Source of the DNA: Sphingobacteriales bacterium
GTDB taxonomy: Bacteria > Bacteroidota > Bacteroidia > Sphingobacteriales > Sphingobacteriaceae
Direction: 5' to 3'
Length of the DNA: 32,000 bases
NCBI GenBank assembly: GCA_044337515.1
Contig: JBIINK010000001.1
Location: forward strand, 109,840-141,839
Below the pieces are notes generated by a model. It was not told the origin of the DNA and searched no databases. It saw only the letters and a list, made by a program, of their open reading frames with translations. Below are positions 2,221 to 26,970 of this stretch, one piece after another. Within the stretch, counting starts at the first letter, position 1; every line of letters starts with the position of its first letter. Both the position numbers and the translations under genes were made by a program.

Positions 2221-2256
2221 ATTAGCATGCCAGCATATTAGCATACTAGCATATTA
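2221..2256. repeat. Octamer array NNNagcat x4, forward orientation
   Basis: attagcat gccagcat attagcat actagcat, read directly in the spacer between two minus-strand genes. Confidence 0.8.
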
Positions 2257-2258
2257 AC

Positions 2259-2570: not shown

Positions 2571-2607
2571 GATAATGATTAATTTATTAGTGACAAATAT
2601 AATAGTT

Positions 2608-2642
2608 AGTATGCTGATTTGCTAATATGCTAGTATACTGGT
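2608..2642. repeat. Octamer array atgctNNN x4, reverse orientation of the agcat family
   Basis: atgctgat ttgctaat atgctagt atactggt, inverted relative to the arrays at 2221-2256 and 3091-3182. Confidence 0.75.
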
Positions 2643-2992: not shown

Positions 2993-3090
2993 AAAGCAAA
3001 ACTATTTGAAAGAATCTACCTACACAACTGCATTTAAGCAGGTTTTTTTATCATCCTTAATATATCATCCTGCATTTATCAGTATTAGAC

Positions 3091-3182
3091 ACCAGCATAT
3101 TAGCATACCAGCATATTAGCACACCAGCATACTATCATATTAAAACATCAGCATACTATCATATCAGCATACTAGCATATTA
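3091..3182. repeat. Long octamer array of the agcat family, about 11 units, forward orientation
   Basis: accagcat attagcat accagcat attagcac accagcat actatcat attaaaac atcagcat actatcat atcagcat actagcat. It ends at the stop codon of the adaptor gene. Confidence 0.85.
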
Positions 3183-4340
3183 ATCCTCGCTCTTATTCTT
3201 CATCGCCATCAATATCTTATACGACCCTGCATCAACAATTTTAGCTTGTTTTAATTCTTCAGATGGATCTACAATCTCAATAAATGGTTTCTCTGAAACA
3301 CCTGTGGTTACTGGGTACAACTCGAATGTTGAATCGTTTTGTGCAACTACTAAGTAGTTTTTGTTTTCATAACGAATTACAGAACTTTCTTTTACCACCA
3401 TTGATTTTTTTAATGCTGATTCTACTTCAACATTCATAAACATACCTGGTATTAATTGGTGGTCTTCTTTTTCAAAATGACAATGAACATCAATTGCTTT
3501 GTTCTCATTTAATCCTCTGCCTACTAAAATTATTTCAGCATTGTATTTTACATCCGGGTGTTCATTGGTAAATGCAACAACCTTTTGCCCAACTGCTATA
3601 TATGGAATATCTTTTTGGAAGATTTGAATGTTTAAATGAATGTCGTTCGGATTAATTAATTCGAACATTACATCATTCGAGCTAATGTATTTACCTACGT
3701 TAACATTTACTTTAGAAATATATCCATCAATAGGAGAGTGTATCTCCATGCGTGAACTAATTTTTTCGGCAGTGAATTTTTGTGGGTCGATGCCAATTAA
3801 TTTTAATTTTTCTCCATACGAGCGAACTTGTATTTCAAGAATTTCCACATTGCTTTTCGATTCTAAGTATGTCTTTTCTGCAATTGCTTTTTCTGTATAC
3901 AATTCTTTTTGTTTCTTGAAATCAATTCTAGCAAGCTCCATTTTGTTCTTTGCGCTTAAGTAGTCCTGTCCCATTTGTATGTATTGTTGATCTTCCAGTA
4001 CAGCAAGTAATTCTCCTTTTCTTACTTTCAAACCTGGAAGTAGTTCGGTGTACTTAAGATAACCGCCGAATGGAGCAGATATATTCACTAAACTTTGTGG
4101 TGGCACATCTATACTTCCATTTGCACGTATGATGTTTCCTAAGCTTCGTTCTTCGATTTTAATAATACTCATTGGAATGTTAGAAAGTTGAGTTTTATTT
4201 AAAATGATAACGTCTTCACTAGCCACAACTTTAGCATCTGTTGCTGTTGGTTCTTTTGATTGGCAGGCTTGCAATGCAATGCCTAATACAATTAGATATA
4301 ATATATTTCTTTTCATGATAGTTCGATTCTTAAAGTTCAT
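3180..4340 (-). CDS. Efflux RND periplasmic adaptor subunit (HlyD/CzcB-like membrane fusion protein)
   Basis: 386-aa ORF with a lipoprotein-type signal (GIALQAC/QSKE). It has coiled-coil and beta-barrel MFP-like organisation. It overlaps the upstream RND pump gene by 11 nt, which suggests an operon. Confidence 0.75.
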   Translation of the reverse strand: MNFKNRTIMKRNILYLIVLGIALQACQSKEPTATDAKVVASEDVIILNKTQLSNIPMSIIKIEERSLGNIIRANGSIDVPPQSLVNISAPFGGYLKYTELLPGLKVRKGELLAVLEDQQYIQMGQDYLSAKNKMELARIDFKKQKELYTEKAIAEKTYLESKSNVEILEIQVRSYGEKLKLIGIDPQKFTAEKISSRMEIHSPIDGYISKVNVNVGKYISSNDVMFELINPNDIHLNIQIFQKDIPYIAVGQKVVAFTNEHPDVKYNAEIILVGRGLNENKAIDVHCHFEKEDHQLIPGMFMNVEVESALKKSMVVKESSVIRYENKNYLVVAQNDSTFELYPVTTGVSEKPFIEIVDPSEELKQAKIVDAGSYKILMAMKNKSED

Positions 4341-12361: not shown

Positions 12362-13600
12362 ATGATTTCCAAGATACTTCGCCCTTATCGTTTAATTGAA
12401 AAATCTGTCATCAATATGATTGTTGCAGAGTTTTTCATTCAAATGGTAAATGCTGCGATGATGATGGTACTTAATATCTATTTAGCTAAGAAAGGATATT
12501 CGGATCCAGAAATTGCAGATTTTATTTCTTGGAGATTTTTAAGTGTAATGGTATTGGCATTCCCATTAGGCTTATTTATAAAAGGTCGGAAAATCGTACC
12601 ATTCTTTTACATTGCTTCCATAGGTGTTTCCTTATTTAGTGTTTTAATTTTATTGTCTGTAGAATATGCACACCCGCTGTTGGTTCATATATCATTGGCA
12701 TGTTGGGGTATCTCGTATGCTTTTATGCAAGTATTAGCCTTGCCCTACATATTGCGAAATACATCATCAGAGAATCAAAGTGCTGCCATTTCATTAAGTT
12801 ACTCTACCTATAGCTTTGCTATGATTAGCACAGGTACAATGATATATTTATTGAATTATTTCAATCCGATTTTTTTTCATGAATACCAATCGTTATTACT
12901 TATATCAGGCTTATCGGGAATCAGTTTGTATTTTGTTTGGCGCATGGGGAAATCGGAAGTAATTCCCAAAGTAGAAGGAAGTAGAAAGGACTTAAGTGGC
13001 TTCGATTGGAAGGTAATTGCAATGGCCATGACACCCTCGCTTATTTTAGCCATTGGTGCAGGATTAACAATTCCGTTTATCAATCTTTTTTTCTTCAAAG
13101 TATTTAATATGAGTGCGGAGAAGTTCGCCATTGTGAATGCATTCTCTTCAGTTACGGTTGCATTTGCTGCCTTGTTAGTTCCTCATATTAAAAAAAGATA
13201 TGGGTACCGAATTGCCATTACTCGTACACAAACTATCGCTGTAATTTCTCTTGCACTATTAGCATGTACCGAATATTATAAAGTAGAAGGTTGGGCATAT
13301 TTTGCTGCTGTGTTTTTCTTTTTACTACGCCAACCCTTAATGAATATGGCTGCTCCAGCGGCATCGGAGTTGGTGATGAATTATGTTGGTCCGAAAAATC
13401 AAGAGATTATATCTGCATTAACTGCATCGATATGGTCGGGGAGTTGGTTCTTTAGCGCAATTATATTTAGAGTGCTACGAAATTCGGGGATGATGTATGC
13501 AAATGTGTTTTTAATAACTGCAGCACTCTATGCATTTGGAGTATTCTGGTATTATTTGCTCATCAATAAATACGAGAAGAAGAATTTAATTAACTCCTAA
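12362..13600 (+). CDS. MFS-type transporter
   Basis: 412-aa ORF, hydrophobic throughout with about 12 predicted TM segments and a central loop (KSEVIPKVEGSRKDLSG). It starts 2 nt after the miaA stop. Confidence 0.6.
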   Translation: MISKILRPYRLIEKSVINMIVAEFFIQMVNAAMMMVLNIYLAKKGYSDPEIADFISWRFLSVMVLAFPLGLFIKGRKIVPFFYIASIGVSLFSVLILLSVEYAHPLLVHISLACWGISYAFMQVLALPYILRNTSSENQSAAISLSYSTYSFAMISTGTMIYLLNYFNPIFFHEYQSLLLISGLSGISLYFVWRMGKSEVIPKVEGSRKDLSGFDWKVIAMAMTPSLILAIGAGLTIPFINLFFFKVFNMSAEKFAIVNAFSSVTVAFAALLVPHIKKRYGYRIAITRTQTIAVISLALLACTEYYKVEGWAYFAAVFFFLLRQPLMNMAAPAASELVMNYVGPKNQEIISALTASIWSGSWFFSAIIFRVLRNSGMMYANVFLITAALYAFGVFWYYLLINKYEKKNLINS

Positions 13601-14099
13601 GTATTTCTACTCTACCATTAGGGTCTAAACGAATTAAACTCGATTCTAAAAATGCATCTTGCATTGCACAGGTAAAAATAGTTGATTCTTCTAGCATCGT
13701 TACATCTTCATCATTTATAGCACAAAGCAGAATTGGCATTCTGAACTTTCTAATAAACTGCTGCAATTCACCTTCACGTACAACACGAATTTGAATACTA
13801 GTATCTGGCATTATTGCTGACGGAGCAAGGTTCTTGCCACCTATGCTAGTTAATACAATTGGTTTTTCAGAGAAGTCAATAATGTCGTATGCTAAAGGAT
13901 TCAATTCAGCAATATAACTTTCTAAACGGTTCGAGCTATCGAGTATTAACTCAAATGATTGTTGATACTCTTTATATTTAGCTACTGTTTCTTCGTGATT
14001 TGCTTCCAATATTACATAGTAATGATCTTCTACTTCTAATCCTATGTAGTGATTAGTTTTTAAAGTTTCTAATGCTTTTGGTAGATTGAAGTTCTGCAT
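13590..14099 (-). CDS. Divergent Sua5/YciO/YrdC-like domain protein
   Basis: 169-aa ORF. By eye it is collinear with the YrdC fold (…KPIVLTSIGGKNLAP…SIQIRVVREGELQQFIRKFRMPILLCAIN…). The KxR and S-x-N catalytic-type motifs do not appear to be retained. It starts 1 nt after the glycosyltransferase gene. Confidence 0.35.
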   Translation of the reverse strand: MQNFNLPKALETLKTNHYIGLEVEDHYYVILEANHEETVAKYKEYQQSFELILDSSNRLESYIAELNPLAYDIIDFSEKPIVLTSIGGKNLAPSAIMPDTSIQIRVVREGELQQFIRKFRMPILLCAINDEDVTMLEESTIFTCAMQDAFLESSLIRLDPNGRVEILRS

Positions 14100-14100
14100 A

Positions 14101-15234
14101 TTATTGCTTGACTAATTCTTGATAAACTTGCATTAATTCTTTGGCAATATTAGAGTGTTCGAATTTTTTAGCATACTCTTTACCAGCAGCAATTTGTTCG
14201 GTATTGTCTTCTGCAAGTAATTTGTTAATTGCTTTTGTTAGTGCTGGCACATCATCCGGACTAACATAAACTGATGATGGACCACCTGCTTCTTCTAAGC
14301 ATGAACCTGTTGCAGCAATTACGGGAACACCACATTGCAGTGCTTCAATTATTGGAATGCCAAAACCTTCAAATCTTGAAGTATATATAAATAAAGAGGA
14401 CAAATGATATACTATAGGAAGTTCATCAAAAGATATTTTATGTAAAAATATTACTCGATGTTCTAGGTTATATTTAATCAAATATTGTTTGATTTCTTCT
14501 ACATATGATTTGGGTTTTCCGATAATAACTAAAGGAATGTTTTCATCAATATCTTTTAATGCTTGAACAATTTGAAAGGCATTTTTCCTTGACTCAATTG
14601 TCCCTACATTCAAAATAAATTTTTCGGGTAATTGATATTTTACTCGAACAGTCATCAACATCATCGGGTTTATTTCTTGATGAAATATATCCGAACAGGA
14701 TTGATATACTACACGAATTTTCTTCTCATCAATTCCGAAAAAGTGAATAATATCTTTTTTTGTTTGTTCTGAGATGGCAATAATAAGATCAGCCACTTCA
14801 CAAGCTTTCTTAAATTTAGTTTCGTAAATTTTACGATCGGTTGCTTTATAATATTCCGGAAAGCGTTTAAAAATTAAGTCGTGTATGGTTACTACAGTAG
14901 GAATGCCTGTTTTTTCAATGCCTGCAGGTAACTCATGACTTAACCCATGAAAGAGATCAATTTTATCATGAATGATATCTGATTTTATGCCATACCTACG
15001 CCATAGTGATGGGAGTAATTCATAAAAAAATGATTTAGGAATTCGAATGTGTACTTCTGAATGTTGAGGTAAGTTTAAAAACTTAATTTGATTTTCGTTT
15101 GGAACTGTAGGGTTGTATAAATACAATGAATGTTGAGGGAATTCGTCTGCCAATATCTTTATCGTAGATCGGCTGTAATTACCTAATCCAGTAAAGTTTG
15201 AAAAAGCACGCTTGGCATCGAAACCGATCTTCAT
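14101..15234 (-). CDS. Glycosyltransferase family 4 (GT-B, RfaG-like)
   Basis: 377-aa ORF with the C-terminal GT1/GT4 signature SRFEGFGIPIIEALQCGVPVIA and typical length and layout. Confidence 0.85.
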   Translation of the reverse strand: MKIGFDAKRAFSNFTGLGNYSRSTIKILADEFPQHSLYLYNPTVPNENQIKFLNLPQHSEVHIRIPKSFFYELLPSLWRRYGIKSDIIHDKIDLFHGLSHELPAGIEKTGIPTVVTIHDLIFKRFPEYYKATDRKIYETKFKKACEVADLIIAISEQTKKDIIHFFGIDEKKIRVVYQSCSDIFHQEINPMMLMTVRVKYQLPEKFILNVGTIESRKNAFQIVQALKDIDENIPLVIIGKPKSYVEEIKQYLIKYNLEHRVIFLHKISFDELPIVYHLSSLFIYTSRFEGFGIPIIEALQCGVPVIAATGSCLEEAGGPSSVYVSPDDVPALTKAINKLLAEDNTEQIAAGKEYAKKFEHSNIAKELMQVYQELVKQ

Positions 15235-15311
15235 AAATTGTAAATTGTAAATTGTAAATTGTAAATGATTTGTAATTGTATTTACAATTTACAATTCACA
15301 ATTTACAATTA
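15235..15311. repeat. Inverted pair of heptamer arrays: (aaattgt)x4, 21-nt spacer, (acaattN)x4
   Basis: The left arm 15235-15262 and the reverse complement of the right arm 15284-15311 match at 26 of 28 positions. The pair fills the whole spacer between the dapD stop and the glycosyltransferase start. Confidence 0.9.
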
Positions 15312-15314
15312 GTT

Positions 15315-16133
15315 TTATACTGCTACATTATATTCTCTCAACGTTTCGTTCAACGATGTTTTTAGATCTGTTGATTCTTTACGTTTACCTATAATTAAAG
15401 CACAAGGTACTTGATATTCGCCAGCTGGGAACTTTTTAGTGTAAGAGCCAGGTATAACTACCGAACGAGAAGGAACATAGCCTTTATATTCTACTGGCTC
15501 ATCGCCCGTTACATCAATTATTTTAGTAGATGCAGTAAGTACAACGTTTGCACCTAATACAGCTTCTTTCTCTACACGTACACCTTCAACAACAATACAA
15601 CGAGAGCCAACAAAGCAACCATCTTCAATAATAACAGGTGCTGCTTGTACTGGTTCTAAAACACCACCTATACCAACACCACCACTTAAATGTACATGTT
15701 TACCTATTTGCGCACATGAACCTACAGTTGCCCAAGTATCTACCATAGTGCCTTCGTCAACAAATGCACCAATGTTAACATAAGAAGGCATCATAATAAC
15801 ACCTTTAGCTAAGTATGCTCCATAACGAGCAACCCCATGAGGTACCACTCGAACACCTGCTTCTACGTAATCTGTTTTTAATTTCATCTTGTCATTAAAA
15901 ACAAATGGGCCTACCTTAATTTCTTCCATTTTAGAAATAGGGAAATATAAGATAACAGCTTTTTTAACCCAATCATTCACATGCCATCTGTTTAATACAG
16001 GTTCAGCAACACGTATTTCACCTTTATCGAGTTTCTCAATTACGAATTCAATAGCCTGAATTACATCCGGATAGCTGAGCATGTTTCTATCTTCCCATGC
16101 TTTCTCAACTAATTCTTTATATTTATTAATCAT
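15315..16133 (-). CDS. dapD: 2,3,4,5-tetrahydropyridine-2,6-dicarboxylate N-succinyltransferase
   Basis: 272-aa ORF. It has an N-terminal helical domain and a left-handed beta-helix hexapeptide region (GAYLAKGVIMMPSYVNIGAFVDEGTMVDTWATVGSCAQIG...), typical of short-form DapD. Confidence 0.85.
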   Translation of the reverse strand: MINKYKELVEKAWEDRNMLSYPDVIQAIEFVIEKLDKGEIRVAEPVLNRWHVNDWVKKAVILYFPISKMEEIKVGPFVFNDKMKLKTDYVEAGVRVVPHGVARYGAYLAKGVIMMPSYVNIGAFVDEGTMVDTWATVGSCAQIGKHVHLSGGVGIGGVLEPVQAAPVIIEDGCFVGSRCIVVEGVRVEKEAVLGANVVLTASTKIIDVTGDEPVEYKGYVPSRSVVIPGSYTKKFPAGEYQVPCALIIGKRKESTDLKTSLNETLREYNVAV

Positions 16134-16159
16134 ATGCTGTATTTTTGATTCCTATTTAC

Positions 16160-16186
16160 AAAAGTAATTTTTTTATTGAACATCAA
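16160..16186 (-). promoter_or_regulatory. Candidate Bacteroidota sigma-A promoter for dapD (-7 TACTTTTG, upstream TTG)
   Basis: The complement of 16160-16167 reads tacttttg, which fits TAnnTTTG. A TTG is at the complement of 16184-16186. The box lies about 27 nt upstream of the ATG at 16133, and the spacer is shorter than typical. Confidence 0.3.
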
Positions 16187-16204
16187 CGGTAAATATAAGT
16201 TTCT

Positions 16205-16603
16205 ATGCCTGCTGAAAATAATGAAAAGCTCAGAATTGATAAATATTTATGGGCGATCCGAATATTTAAAACGAGGAGTATTGCCACTGATGCTTGTAAA
16301 GCTGGTCGCGTTAAGCTTGAGCAGCAAAGTATAAAACCATCGTATGTAGTAAAAATTGGAGATGTTTTTCATATCCAAAAAGATCAACAGAAAAAAATAA
16401 TTAAAGTACTGGAACTATTAGAAAAAAGACTGGATGCAACATCAGCCCAGAAGTATTTTATAGATCAAACCCCAATTAACGATACCCCTAGAAATCATTC
16501 TATTTTTACAGTACCCGTATTAAAACGCGACAGAGGTACAGGCAGACCTACCAAAAAAGATAGAAGAGAGATTGATGATATTCAAACGAGCTGGGAGGAC
16601 TAA
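16205..16603 (+). CDS. RNA-binding S4-domain protein (Hsp15/HslR-like)
   Basis: 132-aa ORF with an S4 motif (LRIDKYLWAIRIFKTRSIATDACKAGRVKLEQQSIKPSYVVKIGDV) and a basic C-terminal tail. Confidence 0.75.
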   Translation: MPAENNEKLRIDKYLWAIRIFKTRSIATDACKAGRVKLEQQSIKPSYVVKIGDVFHIQKDQQKKIIKVLELLEKRLDATSAQKYFIDQTPINDTPRNHSIFTVPVLKRDRGTGRPTKKDRREIDDIQTSWED

Positions 16604-17238
16604 CTAATGCCAATGCTATAAGCATAGCGTACTAGTCCACTTGTATTATGAACCCCCACTTTTTTCATGATATTTGCACGATGGGTTTCTACAGTTCGAA
16701 TAGAAATATGAAGATCTTTTGAAATATCATTACTTGACTTACCTCGAGCTAGTTGATGAAGAATTTCACGCTCTCGAGAACTTAAATCTTCTAAAAAATA
16801 GGTTTCTTTTAGTTTCTTTTTCTTTTTTTCTAAAACGTTTTCTAACGTTACTGCTGTACTGAAATGTTTTTCGCCTTTTTTAACTTTTCGAATGGCGAAA
16901 CATAGTTCTTCTTTATCTACCGACTTTAGCAAATAACCATATGCTCCTGCAGATATCATTTTATTCAGATTAACGATATCATCATATATTGTTAATGCGA
17001 TTACTTTGGTTTTCGGGTATTGTGCCGAAATTATTTTTGTCGTTTCAACACCATCTAGAATTGGCATTCCAATATCCATCAATATCACATCAACTTCATT
17101 TTGCGCACAGGCCTTGAGTACTTCGTTCCCGTTAGTTGCGATTTCTACGATTTTAATATCCTTTTCGTGTTGTAAAGCAGCTTGCACACCTTCTGAAAAA
17201 AGTGCATGGTCGTCGGCAATTATTATGTTAATTAACAT
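16600..17238 (-). CDS. NarL/FixJ (LuxR)-family response regulator
   Basis: 212-aa ORF. The receiver domain has IIADDH...DVILMDIGMPILDG...KVIALT. The C-terminal LuxR HTH reads LSSREREILHQLARGKSSNDISKDLHISIRTVETHRANIMKKVG. Confidence 0.9.
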   Translation of the reverse strand: MLINIIIADDHALFSEGVQAALQHEKDIKIVEIATNGNEVLKACAQNEVDVILMDIGMPILDGVETTKIISAQYPKTKVIALTIYDDIVNLNKMISAGAYGYLLKSVDKEELCFAIRKVKKGEKHFSTAVTLENVLEKKKKKLKETYFLEDLSSREREILHQLARGKSSNDISKDLHISIRTVETHRANIMKKVGVHNTSGLVRYAYSIGIS

Positions 17239-17306
17239 ACTACTTAATATTTGCTGTAAATTAAATATATTTACTGATAATTCTTACAAAACAAAAATAA
17301 TAACTT

Positions 17307-17615
17307 ATGTCTAACTCACAAAACGAAATTAACTTAAATGAAGCTAGTCAATTGACTGCTAATTACAGAAATGCTAACCCAAACAAACCTATTGCAGAAT
17401 ACTTTAATAGAGATGCATTTGAAGCCCTATTAGCAAACCCATCTATTACAGGAATTAGAATCTACAAAGGCTTGGATGATCAAGGTGTAGAACATTTGGT
17501 TTTGGTTGGAGCAATACAAGAAGGTGCGACAGACGAAGATGAAATAAGTTTAATTATGGAAGCAGGTAAACTTTGTCCGCCAATATGTTCAAATATTAAC
17601 CCTCTAAATAGCTAA
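17307..17615 (+). CDS. Small conserved-looking hypothetical protein ending in a CPPxC motif
   Basis: 102-aa ORF, first gene of the sensor operon, divergent from the response regulator. Motifs GIRIYKG, LVLVGA and the C-terminal LCPPICSN resemble uncharacterised Bacteroidota proteins I have seen. Function unknown. Confidence 0.5.
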   Translation: MSNSQNEINLNEASQLTANYRNANPNKPIAEYFNRDAFEALLANPSITGIRIYKGLDDQGVEHLVLVGAIQEGATDEDEISLIMEAGKLCPPICSNINPLNS

Positions 17616-17619
17616 TATT

Positions 17620-18300
17620 TTGGATTGGTTCGAAACATATATTAAGTCAGATCAATTTTTAGTGTTGAATAATATAAGTTCCTATTCCATGCTATTGCCT
17701 TTTATTATAGGGGTTTTCAGGTTTAAGGATTTGCATATTTCTATGCGATATTTTTTGGGAATTATAGTTGTTTTTTTAGTCGCAGAAATAGGCATGAATA
17801 TTCTTGCTTACTTACATCAGTATAATTTATGGTTAGTTAATATTGTTAATCTATTACAATTAATATTGCTCTTTTACTTTTTTTATTTAACTAGTCTAAA
17901 TCGTATTTATAAGAAAATGCTTGTCTTATTTGGCATACTATTTACGGTGATTTGGTCAATCTTAATTTTTCATTTTGGGTTCAATAATTTAGAGCCGTAT
18001 TCACTAACCTTAGCGAGTATATTGACATTATTAGCCTGTGGATATAATATGGTTGAACTGGTTACCAACGATGAACCCAATTTATTTAGGTCTTCTTATT
18101 TTATAATTTCTTTAATGTATTTTATGTATTCTGCAGTTGTAGGAGTAACCTCTATTTTTCTAACAAATTCATTAGAATTTATAGTGAATAATCCATTATT
18201 ATGGAATATACGTGTGCTCATACATTGTGTAGTGAATATATTTTTAAATATTGGATTAGCTTATTCGTTTATATGCAAAGTATCGAAACCCAAGCACTAG
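17620..18300 (+). CDS. Seven-TM membrane protein (sensor-domain-like), possibly the detached N-terminus of the adjacent kinase
   Basis: 226-aa ORF with a TTG start 4 nt after the previous stop. It has seven hydrophobic segments and no soluble domain. Its 3' end overlaps the kinase ORF in another frame. Confidence 0.55.
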   Translation: MDWFETYIKSDQFLVLNNISSYSMLLPFIIGVFRFKDLHISMRYFLGIIVVFLVAEIGMNILAYLHQYNLWLVNIVNLLQLILLFYFFYLTSLNRIYKKMLVLFGILFTVIWSILIFHFGFNNLEPYSLTLASILTLLACGYNMVELVTNDEPNLFRSSYFIISLMYFMYSAVVGVTSIFLTNSLEFIVNNPLLWNIRVLIHCVVNIFLNIGLAYSFICKVSKPKH

Positions 18301-19019
18301 TAGGTGCAATTGTAAGTTTTGTGGTGGTGAGCATTATGTTTGCCTTCTTTTTGGTATTGGTATTTATTTATCAAAAGAAACGTAGGCAAAAAGAGCAAGA
18401 GCTGTTTGAATCTATTATATCTACTGAAGAGAAAGAGCGAATCCGAATTGCCAAAGAATTGCATGATAGCGTTGGCGCTTCATTATCGGCAGTAAAATTA
18501 CATTTTGGTGCATTAATGCCAGGCATAGAAAATGTAGAGAAAGCAGAGAGAATTGCAAAAATGCTAAGCGATGCTTGCGATGAAGTTCGCGTTATTTCTC
18601 ATCAAATGATGCCTAAGGCAATTCAGTCTGAAGGATTTTTTAACGCTTTAGATTTATTCCTTCGTCCTTTTAAACAGCTGGAGCAAGTCAACGTAGAATA
18701 CATCCTATTAGGAGAACCTCGAGAAATTGTAGATCAAAGCAAATCGGTTATGTTATTTCGAGTGATTCAAGAATTAGTTAATAATGCATTAAAGCATTCC
18801 GATGCAGCAAATATTACCATTCAAATTACAATACAGCCAGAAACCTTACTTGTGTTAGTTGAAGATGATGGCAAGGGTTTTGAAGTTAACAATGAAAACA
18901 AAAACAATGGATTAGGGCTAGCCAATATTCAAAATCGTGTGAATTATTTAAAAGGTAATTTGAATATTGAATCTGAACTTGGGAAAGGCACTACAGTACT
19001 GATTCATTTGAATATTTAA
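18273..19019 (+). CDS. Sensor histidine kinase core (HisKA_3 + HATPase_c), NarL-partner type
   Basis: The ORF track frame opens at 18201, and the first well-placed ATG is 18273 (MQSIETQALVGAIVSFVVVSIMFAFFLVLVFIY, one TM). The H-box is RIRIAKELHDSVGASLSAVKL, the N-box is ELVNNALKHS, and the G-boxes are DDGKGF and NGLGLANI. Confidence 0.8.
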   Translation: MQSIETQALVGAIVSFVVVSIMFAFFLVLVFIYQKKRRQKEQELFESIISTEEKERIRIAKELHDSVGASLSAVKLHFGALMPGIENVEKAERIAKMLSDACDEVRVISHQMMPKAIQSEGFFNALDLFLRPFKQLEQVNVEYILLGEPREIVDQSKSVMLFRVIQELVNNALKHSDAANITIQITIQPETLLVLVEDDGKGFEVNNENKNNGLGLANIQNRVNYLKGNLNIESELGKGTTVLIHLNI

Positions 19020-19223: not shown

Positions 19224-21068
19224 ATGAGTGAAGGAAAGAAGATACTGATTAATGCATTTTTTTACGCTTTTTTGTTTTTTGTTCCGGCTCAGCAGACCAT
19301 GGCACAATCGTTTTTGTACCAACCGAAAGCAGGTCAGAACCCCGAACCCCTAAATCAAGCGAATAATTTCGAAATCGTTATTCGTCAAGAATTAACCAAA
19401 TTCTTTGCGCCAAGTACATTTCTTGTCGACATTAACATGTTGCAAGGAAATGTTGAAGTAATTAAACCTACACCTTCTACGAAAAAGAAGAAGAGTTTAC
19501 AACGTTTACCTGGTATGCCAGTTTTACCAAAAGGCTACCAAGATCAAGACAATAGCGACACTACTAAAAATTATACATACAGCATTGAGGAAGTGGATTA
19601 CCTTTATGTGAACGTAATAGTTGATACCACCTATTCAAATTCAGATATCGATTTCATTAATTCCTTGATTCGTTCTATTATTCCAATTGATGAAACGAAA
19701 GGTGATATTGTTAAAATAAAACGTTCTGTATTCCCTAAGGGTCAAGAGCTAATTGATAATAAAGGTGCAGAACCAGCAATAGCCCAAATTCCAAATTACT
19801 TACCTGCTCCTAGAGAGCCCGAACGCTTAGCTCCAGCTCCTATTGCACCTGTAGAGAAACAAGAAAAAGCTGCTGATAATACGCTTTTATATGTTTTCGT
19901 AGTACTCTTAATACTCTGCTTTATCATCATCGTATTTGTTACTTACTTACTATATCGTAAGAGTAAAGACAATGATAAAAAACCGAAAGCGGATGATGAT
20001 ACGAAGTTAATCCCAGGACCGAATGGTAGTGGACAAGATATGAGTATTATCTATCCAAACACAGGTGGTGGCGATTCTAGCAATTACCAAACAGAAGATA
20101 TTATCAATTACGAGTTCAATCGTCAACATGTTATTACGAGTGTAATTAGTAACCCGAAAGAAGTAGCAAGTATGTTCGAAACTTGGATACTCACTAATCC
20201 TGAAGATGGTAAGTTAAGAGCAGCGAATGCATTAAGTGCTGTAAACCCTAAGTTGTTGAATTTCTTACGTCCATTTATGGCCGAGCAAGTGTATTCAGAT
20301 TTAAATCAAGCAGTATCGAATCATCAATTAAAATCACATAGCGATAAATACCAAGAAGCAAGAGACTTTAGTAAGGAATTACTTTCGATGAATGCTGAAC
20401 CAGATCGCAATGAAGATCTTTTTGAATTTTTAAATCAAATTACTGATTCGCAAATCATTCATATGTTAAAAGAAGAAGATGATAATTTATCAGCTATTCT
20501 ATTAGCACAACTGGAAAGTAAAAGAAGTAAAAATGTATTGGGAATGATTGAAATTAATCGTCGTTCATCAATCGTAATGAAAATGAGTAAAATCGATTTC
20601 ATATCATCTTCAATCTATCGTGAAGTAGCTACGTATTTCTCTAAGAAAGCTATTGATGTAAAAGGAATGAAGAATGTTGCTTTCGATGGTTTACAATCTA
20701 TTTTGGATATTCTAGATCAAATGCAAGACGAAGATCAAGATCAATTGATCAGTACAATTGCTTCTCAAGATTTAGAATTGGCAAACAACATCAAACAACA
20801 ATTCGTTGGATTTAAAAATGTGGTTTACCTTACCGATCTTCAATTAGAAACAGCATTAAGAGATATCGATACCAACACGCTTGTTGATGCGCTTACTGGC
20901 ATTAGCAGTCACGTTCAAAGTAAAATTATCGTACAACGCCCACCTCGTGAGCAATCATTAATTAAAGCAGAATTAGAAAGCGGTAATACCGTTACCCCAG
21001 AGGATAGAGACGTGGCAAGAAAGAAAATTATCGATTCGATACGTAAAACATTAAAACTAGTGGCTTGA
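19224..21068 (+). CDS. FliF-C-terminal-like periplasmic domain + TM + full-length FliG-like cytoplasmic domain (fusion protein)
   Basis: The ORF track starts at the TTG at 19200. I prefer the ATG at 19224 (MSEGKKILINAFFYAFLFFVPAQQTMAQ, a signal peptide or TM1). YLYVNVIVDTTYSNSDIDFINSLIRSIIPIDETKGDIVKIKRSVFP resembles the FliF segment (rlsVaVvvd...RGD.v.v...F) just before its last TM. TM2 is LLYVFVVLLILCFIIIVFVTYLLY. The last ~320 aa align by eye with FliG middle (EEDDNLSAILLAQLESKRSKNVLGMIEINRRSSIVMKMSKI) and C-terminal motifs (FVGFKNVVYLTDLQLETALRDIDTNTLVDALTGISSHVQSKII...REQSLIKAELES...DRDVARKKIIDSIRK). Confidence 0.6.
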   Translation: MSEGKKILINAFFYAFLFFVPAQQTMAQSFLYQPKAGQNPEPLNQANNFEIVIRQELTKFFAPSTFLVDINMLQGNVEVIKPTPSTKKKKSLQRLPGMPVLPKGYQDQDNSDTTKNYTYSIEEVDYLYVNVIVDTTYSNSDIDFINSLIRSIIPIDETKGDIVKIKRSVFPKGQELIDNKGAEPAIAQIPNYLPAPREPERLAPAPIAPVEKQEKAADNTLLYVFVVLLILCFIIIVFVTYLLYRKSKDNDKKPKADDDTKLIPGPNGSGQDMSIIYPNTGGGDSSNYQTEDIINYEFNRQHVITSVISNPKEVASMFETWILTNPEDGKLRAANALSAVNPKLLNFLRPFMAEQVYSDLNQAVSNHQLKSHSDKYQEARDFSKELLSMNAEPDRNEDLFEFLNQITDSQIIHMLKEEDDNLSAILLAQLESKRSKNVLGMIEINRRSSIVMKMSKIDFISSSIYREVATYFSKKAIDVKGMKNVAFDGLQSILDILDQMQDEDQDQLISTIASQDLELANNIKQQFVGFKNVVYLTDLQLETALRDIDTNTLVDALTGISSHVQSKIIVQRPPREQSLIKAELESGNTVTPEDRDVARKKIIDSIRKTLKLVA

Positions 21069-22132
21069 TGAAAAGAATAATACTACTCCTAACATTAATT
21101 TGTTCATTATACGGTTCATCTAAAGCTCAGATTGATAAGAATAATCCTATCATTAGAAAGCAATTGGAATTGGTAGATTTAATGGATGAAATTACCGATC
21201 AGGTAAAATTAAATGATCTACTTTACAAACGTGTAGCATTAGCATCTTTTGATTATCCCGATTACATTCTTAATGAAAGTGAAGCGTCACAAATTCGAAG
21301 TAGAATTGAAGGTGCCTTTGCAGTTTCAGGTTTTACTGTAGTATCGGCTCCTGAATTCAAACAAAAACCATTAACCATTGTAAATGGTACCGATTCTAAC
21401 CTTACCATTACTCGTCAAAACACCTTAGAGCGTTTAATTTTAGACGAGGATATGATGAATAATGTTATTGACAAGTATGCTTTGCAAGCGTTAGTTTATG
21501 TGCAATTAACCTATGATCACATTACTGGTTTTCAAGCAAATATTCAGTTAGTAAAATCCAGGTCTAAAGAATTAATTTATAGTGTTGTATTGAATTCTAA
21601 TCCAGAGATGTATAATCCTAGAAAAGCTGAATTCCAAGCAGCCGCTGGTATTTCGTTCTTTAAAAATCAATTTTATTTAGTTGACAATATAGATCAAGGT
21701 GATCAATTCTTAGCGACAATGTCTGATGCTACTCTAATATGGCGCCAACCATTTAATAAAAACCATGGTGGTTTTTATGGTTTTAGAACCGGATTATCAT
21801 TTCTTCAATTAATGAGCACGGGAGTAGATACAGGCTTTACAAAATTCAATAAAGTAATGCCTCATGCTGGTTTCTATTATTCTTTATGTTTTTTAAAGAA
21901 AAATGATCAGCCGCGTAAATATTGGATGGAAGCGTTTCAATCAATGGGAGTTCAAATTTCCAATGAAGTAATACCATTTGTTCGTCAAGGTTTAATAGTT
22001 AACATGACTCAAAATCTAAGTTTAGAACTTGATTTTAGATATTTCTTAGTTAATTCAATTTTTACAAATACAAAAAATACATTACAGTTAGCAAATTTTG
22101 GATATGGATTCAGCTTTATATACAGGCCTTAA
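21068..22132 (+). CDS. Secreted protein with N-terminal alpha/beta domain and C-terminal outer-membrane beta-barrel-like domain
   Basis: The ATG at 21068 overlaps the upstream TGA (TGATG). The signal peptide is MKRIILLLTLICSLYGSSKA/Q. The C-terminal half shows beta-strand alternation and ends LANFGYGFSFIYRP. No family recognised. Confidence 0.5.
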   Translation: MKRIILLLTLICSLYGSSKAQIDKNNPIIRKQLELVDLMDEITDQVKLNDLLYKRVALASFDYPDYILNESEASQIRSRIEGAFAVSGFTVVSAPEFKQKPLTIVNGTDSNLTITRQNTLERLILDEDMMNNVIDKYALQALVYVQLTYDHITGFQANIQLVKSRSKELIYSVVLNSNPEMYNPRKAEFQAAAGISFFKNQFYLVDNIDQGDQFLATMSDATLIWRQPFNKNHGGFYGFRTGLSFLQLMSTGVDTGFTKFNKVMPHAGFYYSLCFLKKNDQPRKYWMEAFQSMGVQISNEVIPFVRQGLIVNMTQNLSLELDFRYFLVNSIFTNTKNTLQLANFGYGFSFIYRP

Positions 22133-22667
22133 GTATACTTTAATTATTTCAATTTTTGCACTTGCATCTTGCGACACTCGTTATACTATACAAGATTTAG
22201 CAGAGCAACAACGCATTGCCGAAAACTCACGAAGAGCCTATTCTACAAAGGATCCCGTGAATATTAAGTATAAAAATAATGCAGCTTCAATAGATTATGC
22301 AGTAGGGAAGGGTAATGAAGAATTTGTATTATCAATGACTACTGACCCAAAATCAAAAAAAGATGTTATTGATGGTTCTTTAAATGTTAGTAAAGAAGCA
22401 AAAGATGCTGTTAACTTAGCGATGAAATACTATCGCCGTTCTCAAGAATTCTTATATGTTGACGATTACAATTCAGCATTAGATTATGTTGATGAGTCTT
22501 TAAAAATTATTGAAACTGCAGAAGCATTATCTTTAAAAGGTAGTGTGCTATACGTGATGGGTAACGAAGAAAAAGCAAAAGAACTTTGGATGCAAGCCGC
22601 TAAACTTGATCCAGAAATTAGAGTGCCTTCTGCAAAAGAATTAAAAGACATTACTTCAAAAAAATAA
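22098..22667 (+). CDS. TPR-repeat lipoprotein
   Basis: 189-aa ORF overlapping the previous gene by 35 nt. Lipobox is LIISIFALASC/DTR. TPR-like helices are in the C-terminal half (AMKYYRRSQEFLYVDDYNSALDYVDESLKI...GNEEKAKELWMQAAKLDPE). Confidence 0.6.
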   Translation: MDMDSALYTGLKYTLIISIFALASCDTRYTIQDLAEQQRIAENSRRAYSTKDPVNIKYKNNAASIDYAVGKGNEEFVLSMTTDPKSKKDVIDGSLNVSKEAKDAVNLAMKYYRRSQEFLYVDDYNSALDYVDESLKIIETAEALSLKGSVLYVMGNEEKAKELWMQAAKLDPEIRVPSAKELKDITSKK

Positions 22668-22669
22668 AT

Positions 22670-23500
22670 ATGAAATTTTCCATCGGAACATTTTTAGGAT
22701 TCTCAATCTGTACTGCATTAATTATTTTAGGTATTATGGATACTGCTGGGGCAATACGCTTAGAGCATTACATTCCTAACATGATGAAAAATCCTTTCAT
22801 ACATATCGCAGGTTTTTTCATTGTATTTGGTGGAGTAATGGCATCTATGTTTGTAATGTATCCAGTAAATGTAGTGTTTGGTGCATTAGGTAAATTCGGA
22901 CAATTATTCAGTCAAACAAAACATAAAGCAATTTCTATAAATGAAGATGTAGAAATGGTAGTTGGTTGGGCTGATCGCATTAAAAAAGATAAGAAAGAAT
23001 TTTTGAATGATATTGCACAAAACGAGAAAGATTCGTTCGTGCGATTATTGTTTGATTTGTATAATACTAATTACTCTTCTTCGGATATCCGAACTATGGG
23101 CGAAACTAGTATTGATAAAGACTATAGCCAATCTATTCAAATGTCGGATGTGTTTCATGCTATGGCGAACTCGGCGCCAGCGTTTGGTATGTTGGGTACG
23201 GTGTTGGGTATGATTGTGATGTTGAATAATTTAAATGACCCTTCGAATATTGGTCCAGGTATTTCTACAGGATTAATAGGTACTCTTTATGGTGTTGCAT
23301 CAGCTAATTTATTTTTCATCCCATTGTCTAAAAAAATTAGATATAATGGTTTACATACGCAACGTAGAGAAATTATTATTTTAGAAGGGATGTTATTGAT
23401 TAAAGAGAATAAACCATCAATGGTAATTCGCGACCAATTAATGTCGTTTGTAAGCAGAGATGATTCTGATGCTTCAACTAAAACAGCAACAGCAAAATAA
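22670..23500 (+). CDS. motA: MotA/PomA-type stator channel protein (MotA/TolQ/ExbB superfamily)
   Basis: 276-aa ORF with two N-terminal TMs, a ~100-aa cytoplasmic loop, and then TM3/TM4 carrying the conserved prolines (SAPAFGMLGTVLGMIVML; GLIGTLYGVASANLFFIPLSKKI). The MotA-type C-terminus reads REIIILEGMLLIKENKPSMVIRDQLMSFV. Confidence 0.8.
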   Translation: MKFSIGTFLGFSICTALIILGIMDTAGAIRLEHYIPNMMKNPFIHIAGFFIVFGGVMASMFVMYPVNVVFGALGKFGQLFSQTKHKAISINEDVEMVVGWADRIKKDKKEFLNDIAQNEKDSFVRLLFDLYNTNYSSSDIRTMGETSIDKDYSQSIQMSDVFHAMANSAPAFGMLGTVLGMIVMLNNLNDPSNIGPGISTGLIGTLYGVASANLFFIPLSKKIRYNGLHTQRREIIILEGMLLIKENKPSMVIRDQLMSFVSRDDSDASTKTATAK

Positions 23501-24186
23501 TGTCGGGAGAAGATAACAGACGTAAGCTAAAAAAGAATATCCGAGAGGAGGTTCATGCGGAGCTTTGGCTAATTACGTATGCCGATTTGATTACCTTACT
23601 GTTATGTTTTTTCATTCTATTATTTGCATCAGCAAACGTTGACCAAAACGTTTGGGATCGTGTAAAGGCTAGTTATAGTTCTAAAGTAAAAAACAAAACC
23701 ATATCAACTCCATTAAGTGAAATTAAACATCAACTTGATTCCATGTTGATGAAAGAAGTGAAAGATAAAAGTCTAGAAATCGAAAATAAAGACAACGCCA
23801 TTAACATGCGTTTCTTAAGTAATTCTTTTTACAATAGTGGCGACGCTAAACTGCTCCCAGAAGGAAAAGAAATTGTAGACAAAATTTTCGAAATTATTAA
23901 TGCCGTAAGCAAAGAGAAAAAAGCAAATTTTAGTCTCGACGTTGAAGGACATACCGATGATAACCCTATTGCCACCAAAGAATTTCCTTCAAACTGGGAA
24001 CTCTCTGTTGCACGTGCTTCTAATGTTGTGCGTTACCTAATTGATAGAGGTATGGAACCCCAACGATTAAAAGCTTCAGGTTATGCAGATACACAACCCG
24101 TGGTATCTAACCGAAACGGTAAAGGCGAACCTATTCCTGCAAATCAATCTGTTAATAGAAGGGTTGTGTTGAGGATACATTACTAA
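23500..24186 (+). CDS. motB: MotB-type stator protein with OmpA-like peptidoglycan-binding domain
   Basis: The ATG overlaps the motA-like stop (TAATG). The single TM has the channel Asp in the MotB signature WLITYADLITLLLCFFILLFA. The C-terminal OmpA/MotB domain reads FYNSGDAKLLPEGKEIVDKI...LDVEGHTDDNPI...SNWELSVARASNVVRYL...GYADTQPV...NQSVNRRVVLRI. Confidence 0.85.
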   Translation: MSGEDNRRKLKKNIREEVHAELWLITYADLITLLLCFFILLFASANVDQNVWDRVKASYSSKVKNKTISTPLSEIKHQLDSMLMKEVKDKSLEIENKDNAINMRFLSNSFYNSGDAKLLPEGKEIVDKIFEIINAVSKEKKANFSLDVEGHTDDNPIATKEFPSNWELSVARASNVVRYLIDRGMEPQRLKASGYADTQPVVSNRNGKGEPIPANQSVNRRVVLRIHY

Positions 24187-24261
24187 ACTAAACTTAATTT
24201 ATTTCATTTCATTTATGTCAAACCCCTCAACTGCGCTTCGCTCCGTTCGGGGACCGTCACT

Positions 24262-24297
24262 AATAGCATAATAGCATAATATCATATTAGCATATTA
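24262..24297. repeat. Octamer array aatagcat x4 (agcat family), forward orientation
   Basis: aatagcat aatagcat aatatcat attagcat, located between the motB-like gene and pgk. Confidence 0.75.
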
Positions 24298-26892: not shown

Positions 26893-26964
26893 GGCCCGTT
26901 CGTCTAGGGGTTAGGACAGGAGATTTTCATTCTTCAAACAGGGGTTCGATTCCCCTACGGGCTA
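26893..26964 (+). tRNA. tRNA-Glu (anticodon UUC), CCA not encoded
   Basis: I folded the cloverleaf by hand. The acceptor stem ggcccgt/acgggct has a G1-U72 wobble. The D stem is gtct/ggac. The anticodon stem ggaga/tcttc carries loop tt-TTC-at. The T arm is agggg-ttcgatt-cccct. It is collinear with E. coli tRNA-Glu as I recall it. Length is 72 nt including discriminator A. Confidence 0.9.
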
Positions 26965-26970
26965 CGACCA

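Follow-up and report, generated by a model that had tools for sequence, protein, structure and literature searches.

A natural FliF-FliG fusion encoded together with a flagellar-type stator: a probable self-contained rotor-stator cassette of Sphingobacteriales

The 32-kb window analysed here, i.e. the whole stretch of Sphingobacteriales DNA under study, carries a five-gene operon (19224..24186, + strand) encoding a fusion rotor protein (ORF1), an outer membrane-anchored protein (ORF2), a TPR lipoprotein (ORF3) and a pair of MotA-type (ORF4) and MotB-type (ORF5) proteins, and, judged from sequences, structural models and analogy, this cassette probably represents a self-contained flagellar-type rotor-stator device, that is, a stand-alone rotary or force-generating machine. 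A compact, envelope-spanning, ion-driven device had been proposed in an earlier note on the same DNA; that reading is supported by the present analysis, and rotation itself we infer.

The five co-directional ORFs, recognised from the ORF calls and from junctions read directly, are packed tightly, overlapping or abutting, all of them found where the earlier note had placed them as one unit. ORF1 starts at 19224 (with an alternative TTG start at 19200) and meets ORF2 in the TGATG at 21066-21070, the latter starting at 21065 or 21068 and ending at 22132. ORF3, starting with TTG at 22098 (or ATG at 22104), overlaps the stop codon of ORF2 (22130-22132); its own TAA (22665-22667) is followed by "at" and the ATG of ORF4 at 22670, so that both the 22098-22132 overlap and the 2-nt gap (22668-22669) described previously read as such, and ORF4 and ORF5 share the TAATG at 23498-23502. 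Junctions of this kind are consistent with translational coupling. The genes flanking the cassette are housekeeping ones, and the other genes of the window gave zero matches to any further flagellar Pfam family, in line with the claim that no other flagellar genes lie nearby.

ORF1 (614 aa; 19224..21068, +) is, according to Pfam and to the comparison of its family profile with the PDB and with E. coli FliF and FliG, a natural fusion of the C-terminal part of FliF with FliG. Pfam scores are 2.7e-16 for FliG_C and 1.6e-8 for FliG_M, with YscJ_FliF_C reaching 24.4 bits at a cut-off of 23.8. The family profile, built from 100 family members and run against the PDB, matched FliG chains at 1e-44 and the C-terminal halves of FliF (M-ring chains) at 4e-7, 1.5e-6 and 3e-6, Salmonella FliF 380-560 being matched with E=4e-7; it is colinear with E. 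coli FliF 370-552, up to the last residues of FliF, and then with FliG 12-319. The entry 8z4d is found among both the sequence and the fold matches. The FliF/FliG-like fusion suggested by the earlier note is delineated here more exactly than the note could see, Pfam and the family profile agreeing, and the HMM check proposed there did return significant FliG-family matches, led by FliG_C.

The hydrophobic N-terminus of ORF1 is a predicted signal peptide (aa 1-27; 19224..19304, +) with cleavage between TMA and QSF, leaving Gln at +1. This residue occupies the predicted +1 column in 73% of 134 family members, fitting the Bacteroidetes Q-rule (PMC5837995) and thereby pointing to Bacteroidetes proper; we infer that the peptide is cleaved before Gln. 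The periplasmic RBM3/beta-collar-like, i.e. S-ring-like, domain follows (aa 28-172; 19305..19739, +), recognised from the AF2 model, Foldseek, and hhalign and HMM alignments to FliF 370-435. Its alpha-beta-beta-alpha-beta core was modelled with a pLDDT of about 90, and the top 18 Foldseek matches are exclusively FliF RBM3/collar/S-ring structures (E 2e-6 to 1e-4), followed by PrgK/EscJ and SpoIIIAG; the TM-scores are low (0.3-0.46) for the models of both ORF1 and ORF2, and the AF2 confidence for the two is moderate (pLDDT 67 and 75). Two motifs mark this region. The LPGMP motif (aa 95-99; 19506..19520, +), in a loop of low pLDDT joining two long strands, is nearly invariant in the family as LPGLP (P96 in 99% and G97 in 98% of 134 sequences), and the KGD motif (RGD in the family; aa 159-161; 19698..19706, +; G160 in 95% and D161 in 99%) is aligned with the RGD of FliF RBM3 ("ekRGDsl" in E. 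coli FliF).

The single transmembrane helix (aa 221-244; 19884..19955, +) corresponds to FliF TM2 in the family hydropathy scan and in the profile alignment to the TM2 region. The profile alignment also locates the equivalent of the C-terminal FliG-binding helix of FliF, NPKEVASMFETWI (aa 310-322; 20151..20189, +), the family "nPeevaklleswi" pairing with the E. coli FliF end "dPrvValvirqWi" (P311 conserved in 77% and W321 in 75%). A FliG_N-like domain (about aa 326-395; 20199..20408, +) is indicated by profile matches to FliG_N, including the chain 5tdy_B at 2.3e-4, the profile covering residues 12-325 of A. aeolicus FliG (3hjl) and, for the FliG_N part, E. coli FliG 12-68. In the Pfam-assigned FliG_M domain (aa 409-479; 20448..20660, +) the FliM-binding motif EHPQR is replaced by EEDDN (aa 417-421); the motif, compared across the 134 sequences of the family and the cassettes, is not kept. 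The FliG_C domain (aa 511-608; 20754..21047, +) contains the torque-helix equivalent PPREQSLIKAELE (aa 573-585), in which R575 corresponds to E. coli R281 and E583 to D289. The R281 equivalent is R or K in 96% of the 134 members and position 288/289 is acidic in 8/8 cassettes; at the K264/R297 equivalents conservation is lost in the cassettes. From sequence and model, ORF1 is thus a predicted single-pass inner-membrane protein with a periplasmic homologue of the FliF S-ring (RBM3 plus collar) and, in the cytoplasm, the FliF C-terminal helix and a complete FliG. RBM1 and RBM2 are judged absent, since its periplasmic region comprises only about 190 aa; FliF is represented by its S-ring part alone.

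This architecture makes it very unlikely that the cassette is an ordinary part of a conventional flagellum with its other genes elsewhere in the genome, even though ORF1 homologues are annotated at source as "flagellar motor switch protein FliG" and the high-GC loci L022 and L023 might stem from flagellated FCB lineages. The fusion is devoid of FliF TM1, RBM1 and RBM2, i.e. the export-gate housing, as well as of EHPQR, and the cassette is accompanied by ORF2 and ORF3 (the L021 variant apart) rather than by fliE/H/I/M/N or flg genes. To our knowledge, the core class of the host phylum does not produce flagella. Close relatives are labelled Sphingobacteriales; for Bacteroidota, genes of the filament, the C-ring and the MS/P/L-rings are recorded as absent (PMC12199754), and the prevalent Gln at +1 is itself a Bacteroidetes signature (PMC5837995).

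The stator pair consists of ORF4 (276 aa; 22670..23500, +), a MotA/PomA/MotP-type A subunit, and ORF5 (228 aa; 23500..24186, +), a MotB-type B subunit with a transmembrane segment bearing the channel Asp29, a plug and an OmpA-like peptidoglycan-binding domain, both being assigned by Pfam, NCBIfam (MotD/MotB/MotS for ORF5) and PDB matches. Pfam gives MotA_ExbB at 1.8e-20 for ORF4, and MotB_plug at 4.3e-16 and OmpA at 6.5e-17 for ORF5. Against NCBIfam, ORF4 scores 1e-37 to 1e-23 with MotP/PomA/MotA (9e-36 with MotP), compared with 2e-4 for TolQ and 4e-3 for ExbB, both proteins remaining under the NCBIfam equivalog cut-offs; the PDB matches are all flagellar MotA/PomA for ORF4 and all MotB/PomB/MotS for ORF5. 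The equivalents of MotB Asp32 (D29) and of MotA Pro173 and Pro222 (P170 and P218) are invariant in all relatives, as is the MotA T209 equivalent (T205) in the cassettes, and the cytoplasmic loop of ORF4 is short, of PomA/MotP length. In most cassettes the residue at MotA R90, or one adjacent to it, is basic; the E98 equivalent is not conserved, so the MotA-FliG charge interface is kept only in part. By similarity, ORF4 and ORF5 belong to the flagellar stator branch as MotA and MotB with the ion-binding Asp, gating prolines, plug and peptidoglycan anchor, as the earlier note had read from both prolines, the channel Asp and the OmpA-like domain. Their classification as ExbBD or TolQR, a possibility raised there, is contradicted by the gap in NCBIfam scores and by PDB matches solely to flagellar stators.

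A Zorya-like anti-phage defence built on a MotAB-type 5:2 motor appears highly improbable: ORF5 does match ZorB models (5.6e-21), as would any MotB, but ORF4 has no ZorA match and, with only 276 aa, no long ZorA tail, ORF1-3 have no PADLOC match, and in place of ZorC/D/E-like genes, none of which was found, the flanks carry housekeeping genes.

The two remaining proteins are envelope partners. ORF2 (355 aa; 21065..22132, +) comprises a signal peptide (predicted cleavage between SKA and Q), a TolB-N/LpoB-like periplasmic domain (~aa 23-180) and a small OmpA/OmpX-like beta-barrel (~aa 189-353). Its AF2 model has a mean pLDDT of 74.8 (85-93 in the barrel), with Foldseek matches to the OmpA transmembrane domain (2.5e-5), LpoB (4q6z), TolB (1.7e-5) and GNA1162. 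A C-terminal aromatic residue is present in distant homologues. No Pfam family was assigned to ORF2, only weak OMP_b-brl and FlgO hints being obtained (one homologue matches FlgO weakly, E=0.015). The outer-membrane barrel protein of the earlier note accordingly stands as to the barrel and is refined as to its nature: the model indicates a small anchor with a TolB-N/LpoB-like domain and no obvious channel. ORF3 (189 aa; 22098..22667, +) is the TPR lipoprotein that had been proposed, with the lipobox LASC (Cys25) and a TPR at aa 141-173 (Pfam TPR_2, 1.1e-7); of its homologues at other loci, 6/9 have a lipobox. In its parts list the cassette parallels Tol-Pal: one protein is TolQ-like, another TolR/Pal-like, one domain resembles TolB-N, and the TPR protein resembles CpoB.

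These partners bear on a further alternative, an unlikely one though the least so of those considered, namely a tether or force transducer of the envelope, similar to Tol-Pal or Agl-Glt, that is non-rotary or acts only locally. In it the MotAB-type unit would energise an ORF1-ORF3-ORF2 link across the periplasm to the outer membrane, and the FliG module would be a docking or regulatory platform in the cytoplasm instead of a rotor that spins freely. Such a tether would suit an ORF2 with a TolB-N- and LpoB-like periplasmic domain and an OmpA-like barrel, a CpoB-like ORF3, an ORF5 with a Pal-like OmpA domain, an axle or external load not encoded in the cassette, and the partly conserved MotA-FliG charge interface. 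In its build the cassette resembles envelope systems joining a motor and an inner-membrane platform with TPR and outer-membrane barrel proteins, Agl-Glt and Tol-Pal serving as the comparison; this likeness offers a lead, not a test. ORF4 and ORF5 are, however, much nearer to flagellar stators than to TolQR/ExbBD, the periplasmic domain of ORF1 has the ring-building S-ring fold, and FliG N-M-C has been kept complete, R281 equivalent included, over very long divergence. In every characterised case known to us, FliG belongs to a rotating ring.

The rotor-stator reading also fits the distribution of the cassette. The same gene order is found in MAGs of 10 related freshwater species of Sphingobacteriales (GTDB species genomes), and the cassette recurs at several loci of distant relatives with 20-37% identity and GC of 0.32-0.69; it is therefore not a chance arrangement, and the synteny check suggested earlier finds the order conserved across Bacteroidota-type contigs. 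In an exhaustive search, fusion proteins of the ORF1 architecture formed at least 130 clusters (50% identity), 90 representatives being found at E<1e-30, and about 130 of the best 148 representatives share the signal peptide, transmembrane and FliG arrangement; by sequence, the fusion family is far larger than one clade. Two loci are variant, L024 having no MotAB adjacent to the fusion and L021 missing ORF2 and ORF3 between the fusion and MotA. Within 10 kb, no further flagellar family was seen in the Pfam-annotated contexts (about 10; flanks of loci L011-L024). All five genes exhibit dN/dS of 0.02-0.10, similar to pgk, indicating strong purifying selection, and they are inherited together. 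It is scarcely conceivable that the cassette is what remains of an ancestral flagellum, functionless and in decay, although a loss of flagella is assumed for Bacteroidota and other non-motile species carry remnants of flagellar genes (PMC12199754): the selection analysis contradicts decay, all five ORFs are intact across the cassette loci, residues of catalytic or structural importance do not vary even at about 20% identity, and the overlapping or abutting junctions fit coupled translation.

Compared with the flagellar motor core (FliF MS-ring, FliG, MotA5B2/PomA5B2), the cassette has homologous parts (FliF RBM3/collar, TM2 and C-terminal helix, FliG N/M/C, MotA and MotB) and keeps the R281 and D289 equivalents on the torque helix, whereas FliF and FliG form one polypeptide with a cleavable signal peptide where TM1, RBM1 and RBM2 would be, EHPQR is missing, the neighbourhood lacks genes for FliM/N, export gate, rod, hook, filament and P/L rings and includes those for a TPR lipoprotein and for a TolB-N/LpoB-like protein anchored in the outer membrane, and the hosts are Bacteroidota-type. 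A Salmonella FliF-FliG fusion of Francis and colleagues (1992) is reported to support motility. Engineered or spontaneous fusions of Salmonella and Vibrio (PMC11481574, PMC10941966, PMC6079021; PDB 8z4d/8z4g), joined in frame like ORF1, assemble MS/S-rings; those are laboratory constructs with full-length FliF in flagellated bacteria, whereas ORF1 is natural, widespread, very probably not flagellar and has the S-ring part only. Within the openly searchable literature, only engineered fusions were found and no natural FliF-FliG/MotAB cassette, just as the earlier note recognised no described system.

Like Tol-Pal (TolQ-TolR-TolA-TolB-Pal-CpoB), the cassette is an envelope-spanning operon that includes a 5:2-type motor, a peptidoglycan binder resembling OmpA, a TPR protein and a domain similar to TolB-N; its A/B subunits, however, are flagellar-type (TolQ 2e-4 vs MotP 9e-36), TolA and a beta-propeller are lacking, and FliF-FliG is the inner-membrane partner. 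GldLM/PorLM, ExbBD-TonB, AglRQS-Glt and ZorAB are likewise ion-driven inner-membrane motors working on the periplasm or outer membrane, and Agl-Glt joins TPR proteins with outer-membrane barrels as well; we know of none that pairs with a FliG- or FliF-type partner, and Pfam and PADLOC searches gave no GldL/GldM or ZorA matches among the cassette proteins. The periplasmic flagellar scaffolds (Vibrio FlgT/FlgO/FlgP H-ring and MotX/MotY T-ring, Campylobacter PflA/PflB, spirochaete collar TPR) have no significant sequence similarity to the cassette; they are TPR or TolB-N-like periplasmic or outer-membrane proteins placing stators round the rotor, and this likeness in fold class and role is a lead only.

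By analogy with FliF, FliG and MotA5B2, ORF1 subunits would build a membrane ring by polymerising through their RBM3-like domains, with one FliG per subunit on the cytoplasmic side. Peptidoglycan-anchored ORF4/ORF5 units would pass H+ or Na+ via Asp29, and rotating ORF4 pentamers would push the FliG_C torque helix (R575, E583), turning the ring. With EHPQR lost and no FliM/FliN gene in the cassette, a CheY-type switch is probably lacking. ORF3 and ORF2 may form a periplasmic scaffold, bushing or load, coupling the ring and the LPGLP loop to the wall and the outer membrane. Among the cassette parts, nothing can be recognised as a load or output structure. For the bacteria that carry it, the device might drive surface movement, outer-membrane dynamics or transport, these being its candidate outputs.

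The five co-directional open reading frames of the cassette (ORF1 to ORF5, forward strand, 19224-24186) are present at exactly the positions described in the earlier note, and the tight junctions claimed for them were borne out base by base: a TGATG overlap at 21066-21070, a 2-nt gap at 22668-22669 and a TAATG overlap at 23498-23502, with the start of ORF3 (TTG 22098 or ATG 22104) lying inside the end of ORF2, the stop codon of which is at 22130-22132. A 204-nt intergenic region is located 5' of ORF1, and pgk follows ~110 nt beyond the end of ORF5, the segment between the two (24187-24297) consisting of a short GC-rich stretch (CCCC...GGGG) and then AT-rich ATAGCATA repeats; no terminator was called in it by the consensus scan. 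Such scans were uninformative for both promoters (21 promoter-like sites versus 25.7 expected) and terminators (a single terminator-like site, positioned beyond the operon). The window has a GC content of ~34%, its remaining genes are housekeeping, efflux and two-component genes together with one tRNA-Glu (TTC; 26893-26965), no flagellar family was found by Pfam elsewhere in the 32 kb, and a plasmid search gave no match.

Directly upstream of ORF1 (16600-19019) lies a two-component block—a LuxR-type response regulator on the reverse strand, a 102-aa ORF, a 226-aa multi-TM ORF and a HisKA_3 histidine kinase, the last two overlapping by 100 nt—which is present in the window and at the related loci L001 and L009, and missing from L011 and L012, where the cassette directly follows an S4-domain gene. 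Because of its absence from these two loci, the block represents a variable insertion, or possibly a regulator of the operon. It should also be mentioned that the reverse strand at 4330-8682 encodes a 1450-aa RND transporter, with ACR_tran at aa 5-1033 and a C-terminal OEP match at aa 1270-1367, possibly a fusion of the pump with a portion of its own outer-membrane factor; the gene occurs also in a relative (L011, 1-1797).

The central member of the cassette, ORF1 (614 aa), reads as an ordered succession of signal peptide, S-ring-like domain, TM2, FliF C-terminal tail and FliG with its N, M and C domains. Concerning the FliF part, the Pfam family YscJ_FliF_C scored just above its cut-off (24.4 versus 23.8 bits; aa 111-170). 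The periplasmic region, ~190 aa long with one RBM-like unit, was modelled with AF2 (aa 28-219; the monomer models are of moderate confidence) and adopts in the model a ring-building fold of the alpha-beta-beta-alpha-beta type that has two long strands, i.e. the RBM3 and beta-collar (S-ring) features of FliF. When this model was compared with the PDB by Foldseek, the top 18 matches were all FliF RBM3, collar or S-ring structures (E 2e-6 to 1e-4), followed by PrgK/EscJ and SpoIIIAG. The profile A4, made from 100 members of the ORF1 family, matched FliF M-ring chains (Salmonella 6scn_A, E=4.3e-7, covering FliF 380-560), with further FliF matches to 12dr_A (1.5e-6), 8z5s_AA (3.2e-6) and a FliF fragment (6e-4). 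It is colinear with E. coli FliF 370-552 over the RGD strand, TM2—equivalent to the ORF1 transmembrane helix at aa 221-244—and the terminal FliG-binding helix, the E. coli protein being aligned to its last residue, including 'dPrvValvirqWi'. TM1, RBM1 and RBM2 of FliF, which form the M-ring and the housing for the export gate, were not found in ORF1, and there was no Pfam match to the N-terminal YscJ_FliF family; the N-terminus resembles a cleavable signal peptide. The motif LPG(L/M)P (aa 95-99; 19506-19520), which sits between the two long strands of the S-ring-like domain in a loop modelled at low confidence, is nearly invariant, with P in 99% and G in 98% of the 134 aligned family members, and no FliF counterpart of it was identified.

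With regard to the FliG part, which the earlier note had aligned by eye, the assignment to the FliG family stood up to profile searches, both FliG_C (2.7e-16) and FliG_M (1.6e-8) exceeding their Pfam cut-offs and A4 reaching 1e-44 on FliG chains. The three domains FliG_N, FliG_M and FliG_C follow one another in order: A4 matches the full-length A. aeolicus FliG (residues 12-325) as well as the FliG_N chain 5tdy_B (2.3e-4), and in its alignment E. coli FliG 12-68 and 110-319 come straight after FliF 370-552. In a phmmer search with ORF1 against PDB sequences, the only matches were to FliG chains and to an engineered FliF-FliG fusion. ORF1 stays below the NCBIfam equivalog cut-off for FliG (TIGR00207, 84.8 versus 226.7 bits, model positions 108-319), and the EHPQR motif of FliG_M, which serves for FliM docking, is not kept, the window having EEDDN and only the Glu being conserved (81% of 134 members).

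Searching 1.84 billion representatives exhaustively with HMMER yielded 90 representatives of the ORF1 family at E<1e-30. Of the best 148 matches, about 130 are 560-780 aa long and align end to end, sharing an N-terminal signal-like segment and one transmembrane helix at ~180-340. The same search revealed the seemingly tiny size of the family (29 clusters in a word-index search) to be a sensitivity artefact. Two candidates for an unfused, stand-alone FliG-like protein, P0085 and P0127 (331 aa), were both fragments at contig ends. The source databases label the ORF1 homologues 'FliG' and those of ORF2 'hypothetical'.

ORF4 and ORF5 have the features of a flagellar-type stator pair. ORF4 (Pfam MotA_ExbB, 1.8e-20) possesses four transmembrane helices, the equivalents of Pro173 and Pro222, and the large cytoplasmic TM2-TM3 loop of MotA/PomA/MotP; its P170, T205 and P218, corresponding to P173, T209 and P222 of MotA, are invariant in all cassettes examined. 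Its PDB matches are all flagellar MotA/PomA (5e-26 to 4e-13), and the highest-scoring NCBIfam models are those for flagellar motor protein, MotP, PomA and MotA (1e-37 to 1e-23). ORF5 (MotB_plug 4.3e-16, OmpA 6.5e-17) carries a single transmembrane helix with the channel Asp—D29, equivalent to MotB D32 and likewise invariant in all cassettes examined—a plug and a C-terminal OmpA-like peptidoglycan-binding domain, with PDB and NCBIfam matches to MotB/PomB/MotS. Both proteins are below the NCBIfam equivalog cut-offs, the best scores of ORF4 being 128 versus 237 bits (PRK09109) and 123 versus 394 bits (MotP), so that the two appear from their sequences to be a divergent branch of flagellar-type stators without being equivalogs. 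A classification as ExbB/ExbD or TolQ/TolR, the alternative weighed in the earlier note, fails by model scores (TolQ 2.1e-4 and ExbB 4.2e-3, versus 1e-37 to 1e-23 for the flagellar models); no ExbB or TolQ structure matched ORF4 below 1e-3, and the plug and OmpA domains of ORF5 are unlike the periplasmic domain of ExbD/TolR, which lacks OmpA. A Zorya-like defence system, another user of a 5:2 motor, is contradicted by both the gene context and PADLOC, which gave no ZorA match for ORF4, no matches for ORF1 to ORF3 and a generic ZorB/MotB match only for ORF5; this reading is hardly credible.

The putative rotor-stator contact can be followed at the residue level. In the FliG_C helix, R or K takes the place of FliG R281 in 96% of the 134 members, and each of the eight cassettes compared has an acidic residue where D288 or D289 would be; the equivalents of K264 and R297 are not conserved. 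On the ORF4 side, where the loop alignment is uncertain, most cassettes have a basic residue at or adjacent to the position of R90, and the E98 equivalent is variable. Judged from these alignments, the canonical MotA-FliG charge interface seems to be kept in part.

The remaining two proteins would face the cell wall as well as the outer membrane. ORF2 has no Pfam family, and its profile gave only chance coiled-coil matches against PDB sequences. Its AF2 model (pLDDT 74.8, barrel 85-93) suggests a periplasmic alpha/beta domain like those of TolB-N, LpoB and GNA1162 and a small OmpA/OmpX/Ail-like barrel. Outer-membrane proteins usually end in an aromatic residue, and an aromatic C-terminal residue is found in distant ORF2 homologues. 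ORF3, a TPR protein, carries a lipobox, the latter being present in six of the nine homologues at other loci.

The five-gene synteny, for which the earlier note had proposed a test across Bacteroidota, proved to be conserved: all five genes occur in order in ten GTDB species genomes, all of them MAGs, mostly labelled Sphingobacteriales and of freshwater origin, with 62-99% identity in ORF1. The order is also kept at the distant loci L013-15, L018, L019, L020, L022 and L023 (20-37% identity, GC 0.37-0.69), and BLAST found each of the five proteins homologous across distant loci. With GC contents of the cassette contigs L001-L024 between 0.32 and 0.69, the family spans very different genomes, and the high-GC members L022 and L023 may belong outside Bacteroidia. 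Several flanks contain T9SS-cargo, PorP/SprF and BACON genes, which point to Bacteroidota. At the predicted +1 site following the signal peptide, 73% of the ORF1 family have Gln, as does ORF2, which is the 'Q-rule' of Bacteroidetes (PMC5837995). Two variants were observed: at L021 (3-5869) a 754-aa fusion ends in an ORF3-like TPR stretch, as does an upstream 749-aa protein, with MotA/MotB directly next and without ORF2 and ORF3, and at L024 (105-4074) an ORF2-like gene and a TPR gene precede the fusion with no adjoining MotAB. A metagenome scan with alignment A2 retrieved close relatives only; the ORF1 of one short metagenome contig (L027, JGI contig B570J29032_109934729) matches the window's at 100% identity, and therefore the same population has been sampled independently.

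The genes flanking the cassette differ between loci, and the Pfam-annotated flanks of L011-L024 contain no other flagellar families. Gliding/T9SS-type genes adjoin the cassette at L011 (15261-21854) and also at L012, the L011 neighbours being PorP_SprF, a LytTR regulator and a giant protein of 11,416 aa, and at L018 Por_Secre_tail cargo proteins flank it on both sides (917-4840 and 12642-17153); this neighbourhood is inconsistent across loci and may be due to chance. That the cassette is a dispersed part of an ordinary flagellum is very unlikely, ORF1 being without the export-gate housing and the FliM-binding parts and the cassette being self-contained everywhere. The dN/dS values between the window and three relatives are 0.02-0.10 for all five genes—approximate, with dS near saturation—and comparable with those of pgk; the view of the cassette as a flagellar remnant in decay is contradicted in this way by selection and is highly improbable.

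The comparisons show the homology, the architecture, the conserved functional residues, the co-inheritance and the purifying selection. By analogy with the flagellar motor, the RBM3-like domains of ORF1 would assemble a ring, as FliF does and as do engineered FliF-FliG fusions, which are reported to build rings (PMC11481574, PMC10941966, PMC6079021), with one FliG per ring subunit below the membrane. Ion flow via Asp29 of the peptidoglycan-anchored ORF4/ORF5 complex would rotate the MotA pentamer, which would push the FliG_C helix and turn the ring. The device would probably operate without direction switching, because EHPQR is not kept and neither FliM nor FliN was found in the window or the Pfam-annotated flanks. 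ORF3 and ORF2 might scaffold the assembly or receive its motion at the wall as well as the outer membrane, with the LPG(L/M)P loop of ORF1 as the obvious candidate contact for them. A force transducer like Tol-Pal or Agl-Glt, lacking free rotation, is an unlikely but not negligible alternative. As for a distinct, widespread, non-flagellar rotary machine, in which MotAB would drive a ring of S-ring/FliG fusions with an outer-membrane-anchored partner, the case for it is evenly balanced.

FliG and the FliF S-ring are known solely from flagella, MotAB-type stators are thought to act on flagellar rotors only, and the remaining 5:2 motors (Ton, Tol, Gld, Agl, Zorya) have unrelated partners. The openly searchable full-text literature yielded only work on engineered FliF-FliG fusions, 5:2-motor reviews and surveys, with no description of the cassette, and a MotAB phylogeny defining flagellar versus generic transporters (PMC12505986) does not mention such a system. 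The cassette is regarded as a probably new, self-contained and apparently non-flagellar version of the flagellar-type rotor-stator core. If the rotary reading is true, this would be the first FliG-based rotor outside the flagellum. It could have originated as an exapted remnant of an ancestral FCB flagellum or as a lineage sister to the flagellar motor core and working without the type III export apparatus, and in either case it would represent a natural 'minimal motor' relevant to how the flagellar motor arose.

A conserved cassette retaining nothing but S-ring, FliG and MotAB of the flagellum, in a flagella-less phylum, would show that the torque core can exist and be selected alone, and that it can be wired to a different output via an outer-membrane-anchored protein and a TPR lipoprotein. 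It would offer a minimal system of natural origin in which to study how rotor and stator couple when switch and export apparatus are lacking, and would add a new data point on how the flagellar motor began or was reduced. For freshwater and other Bacteroidota, it may indicate a motility mechanism or an energised function of the envelope that has gone unrecognised.
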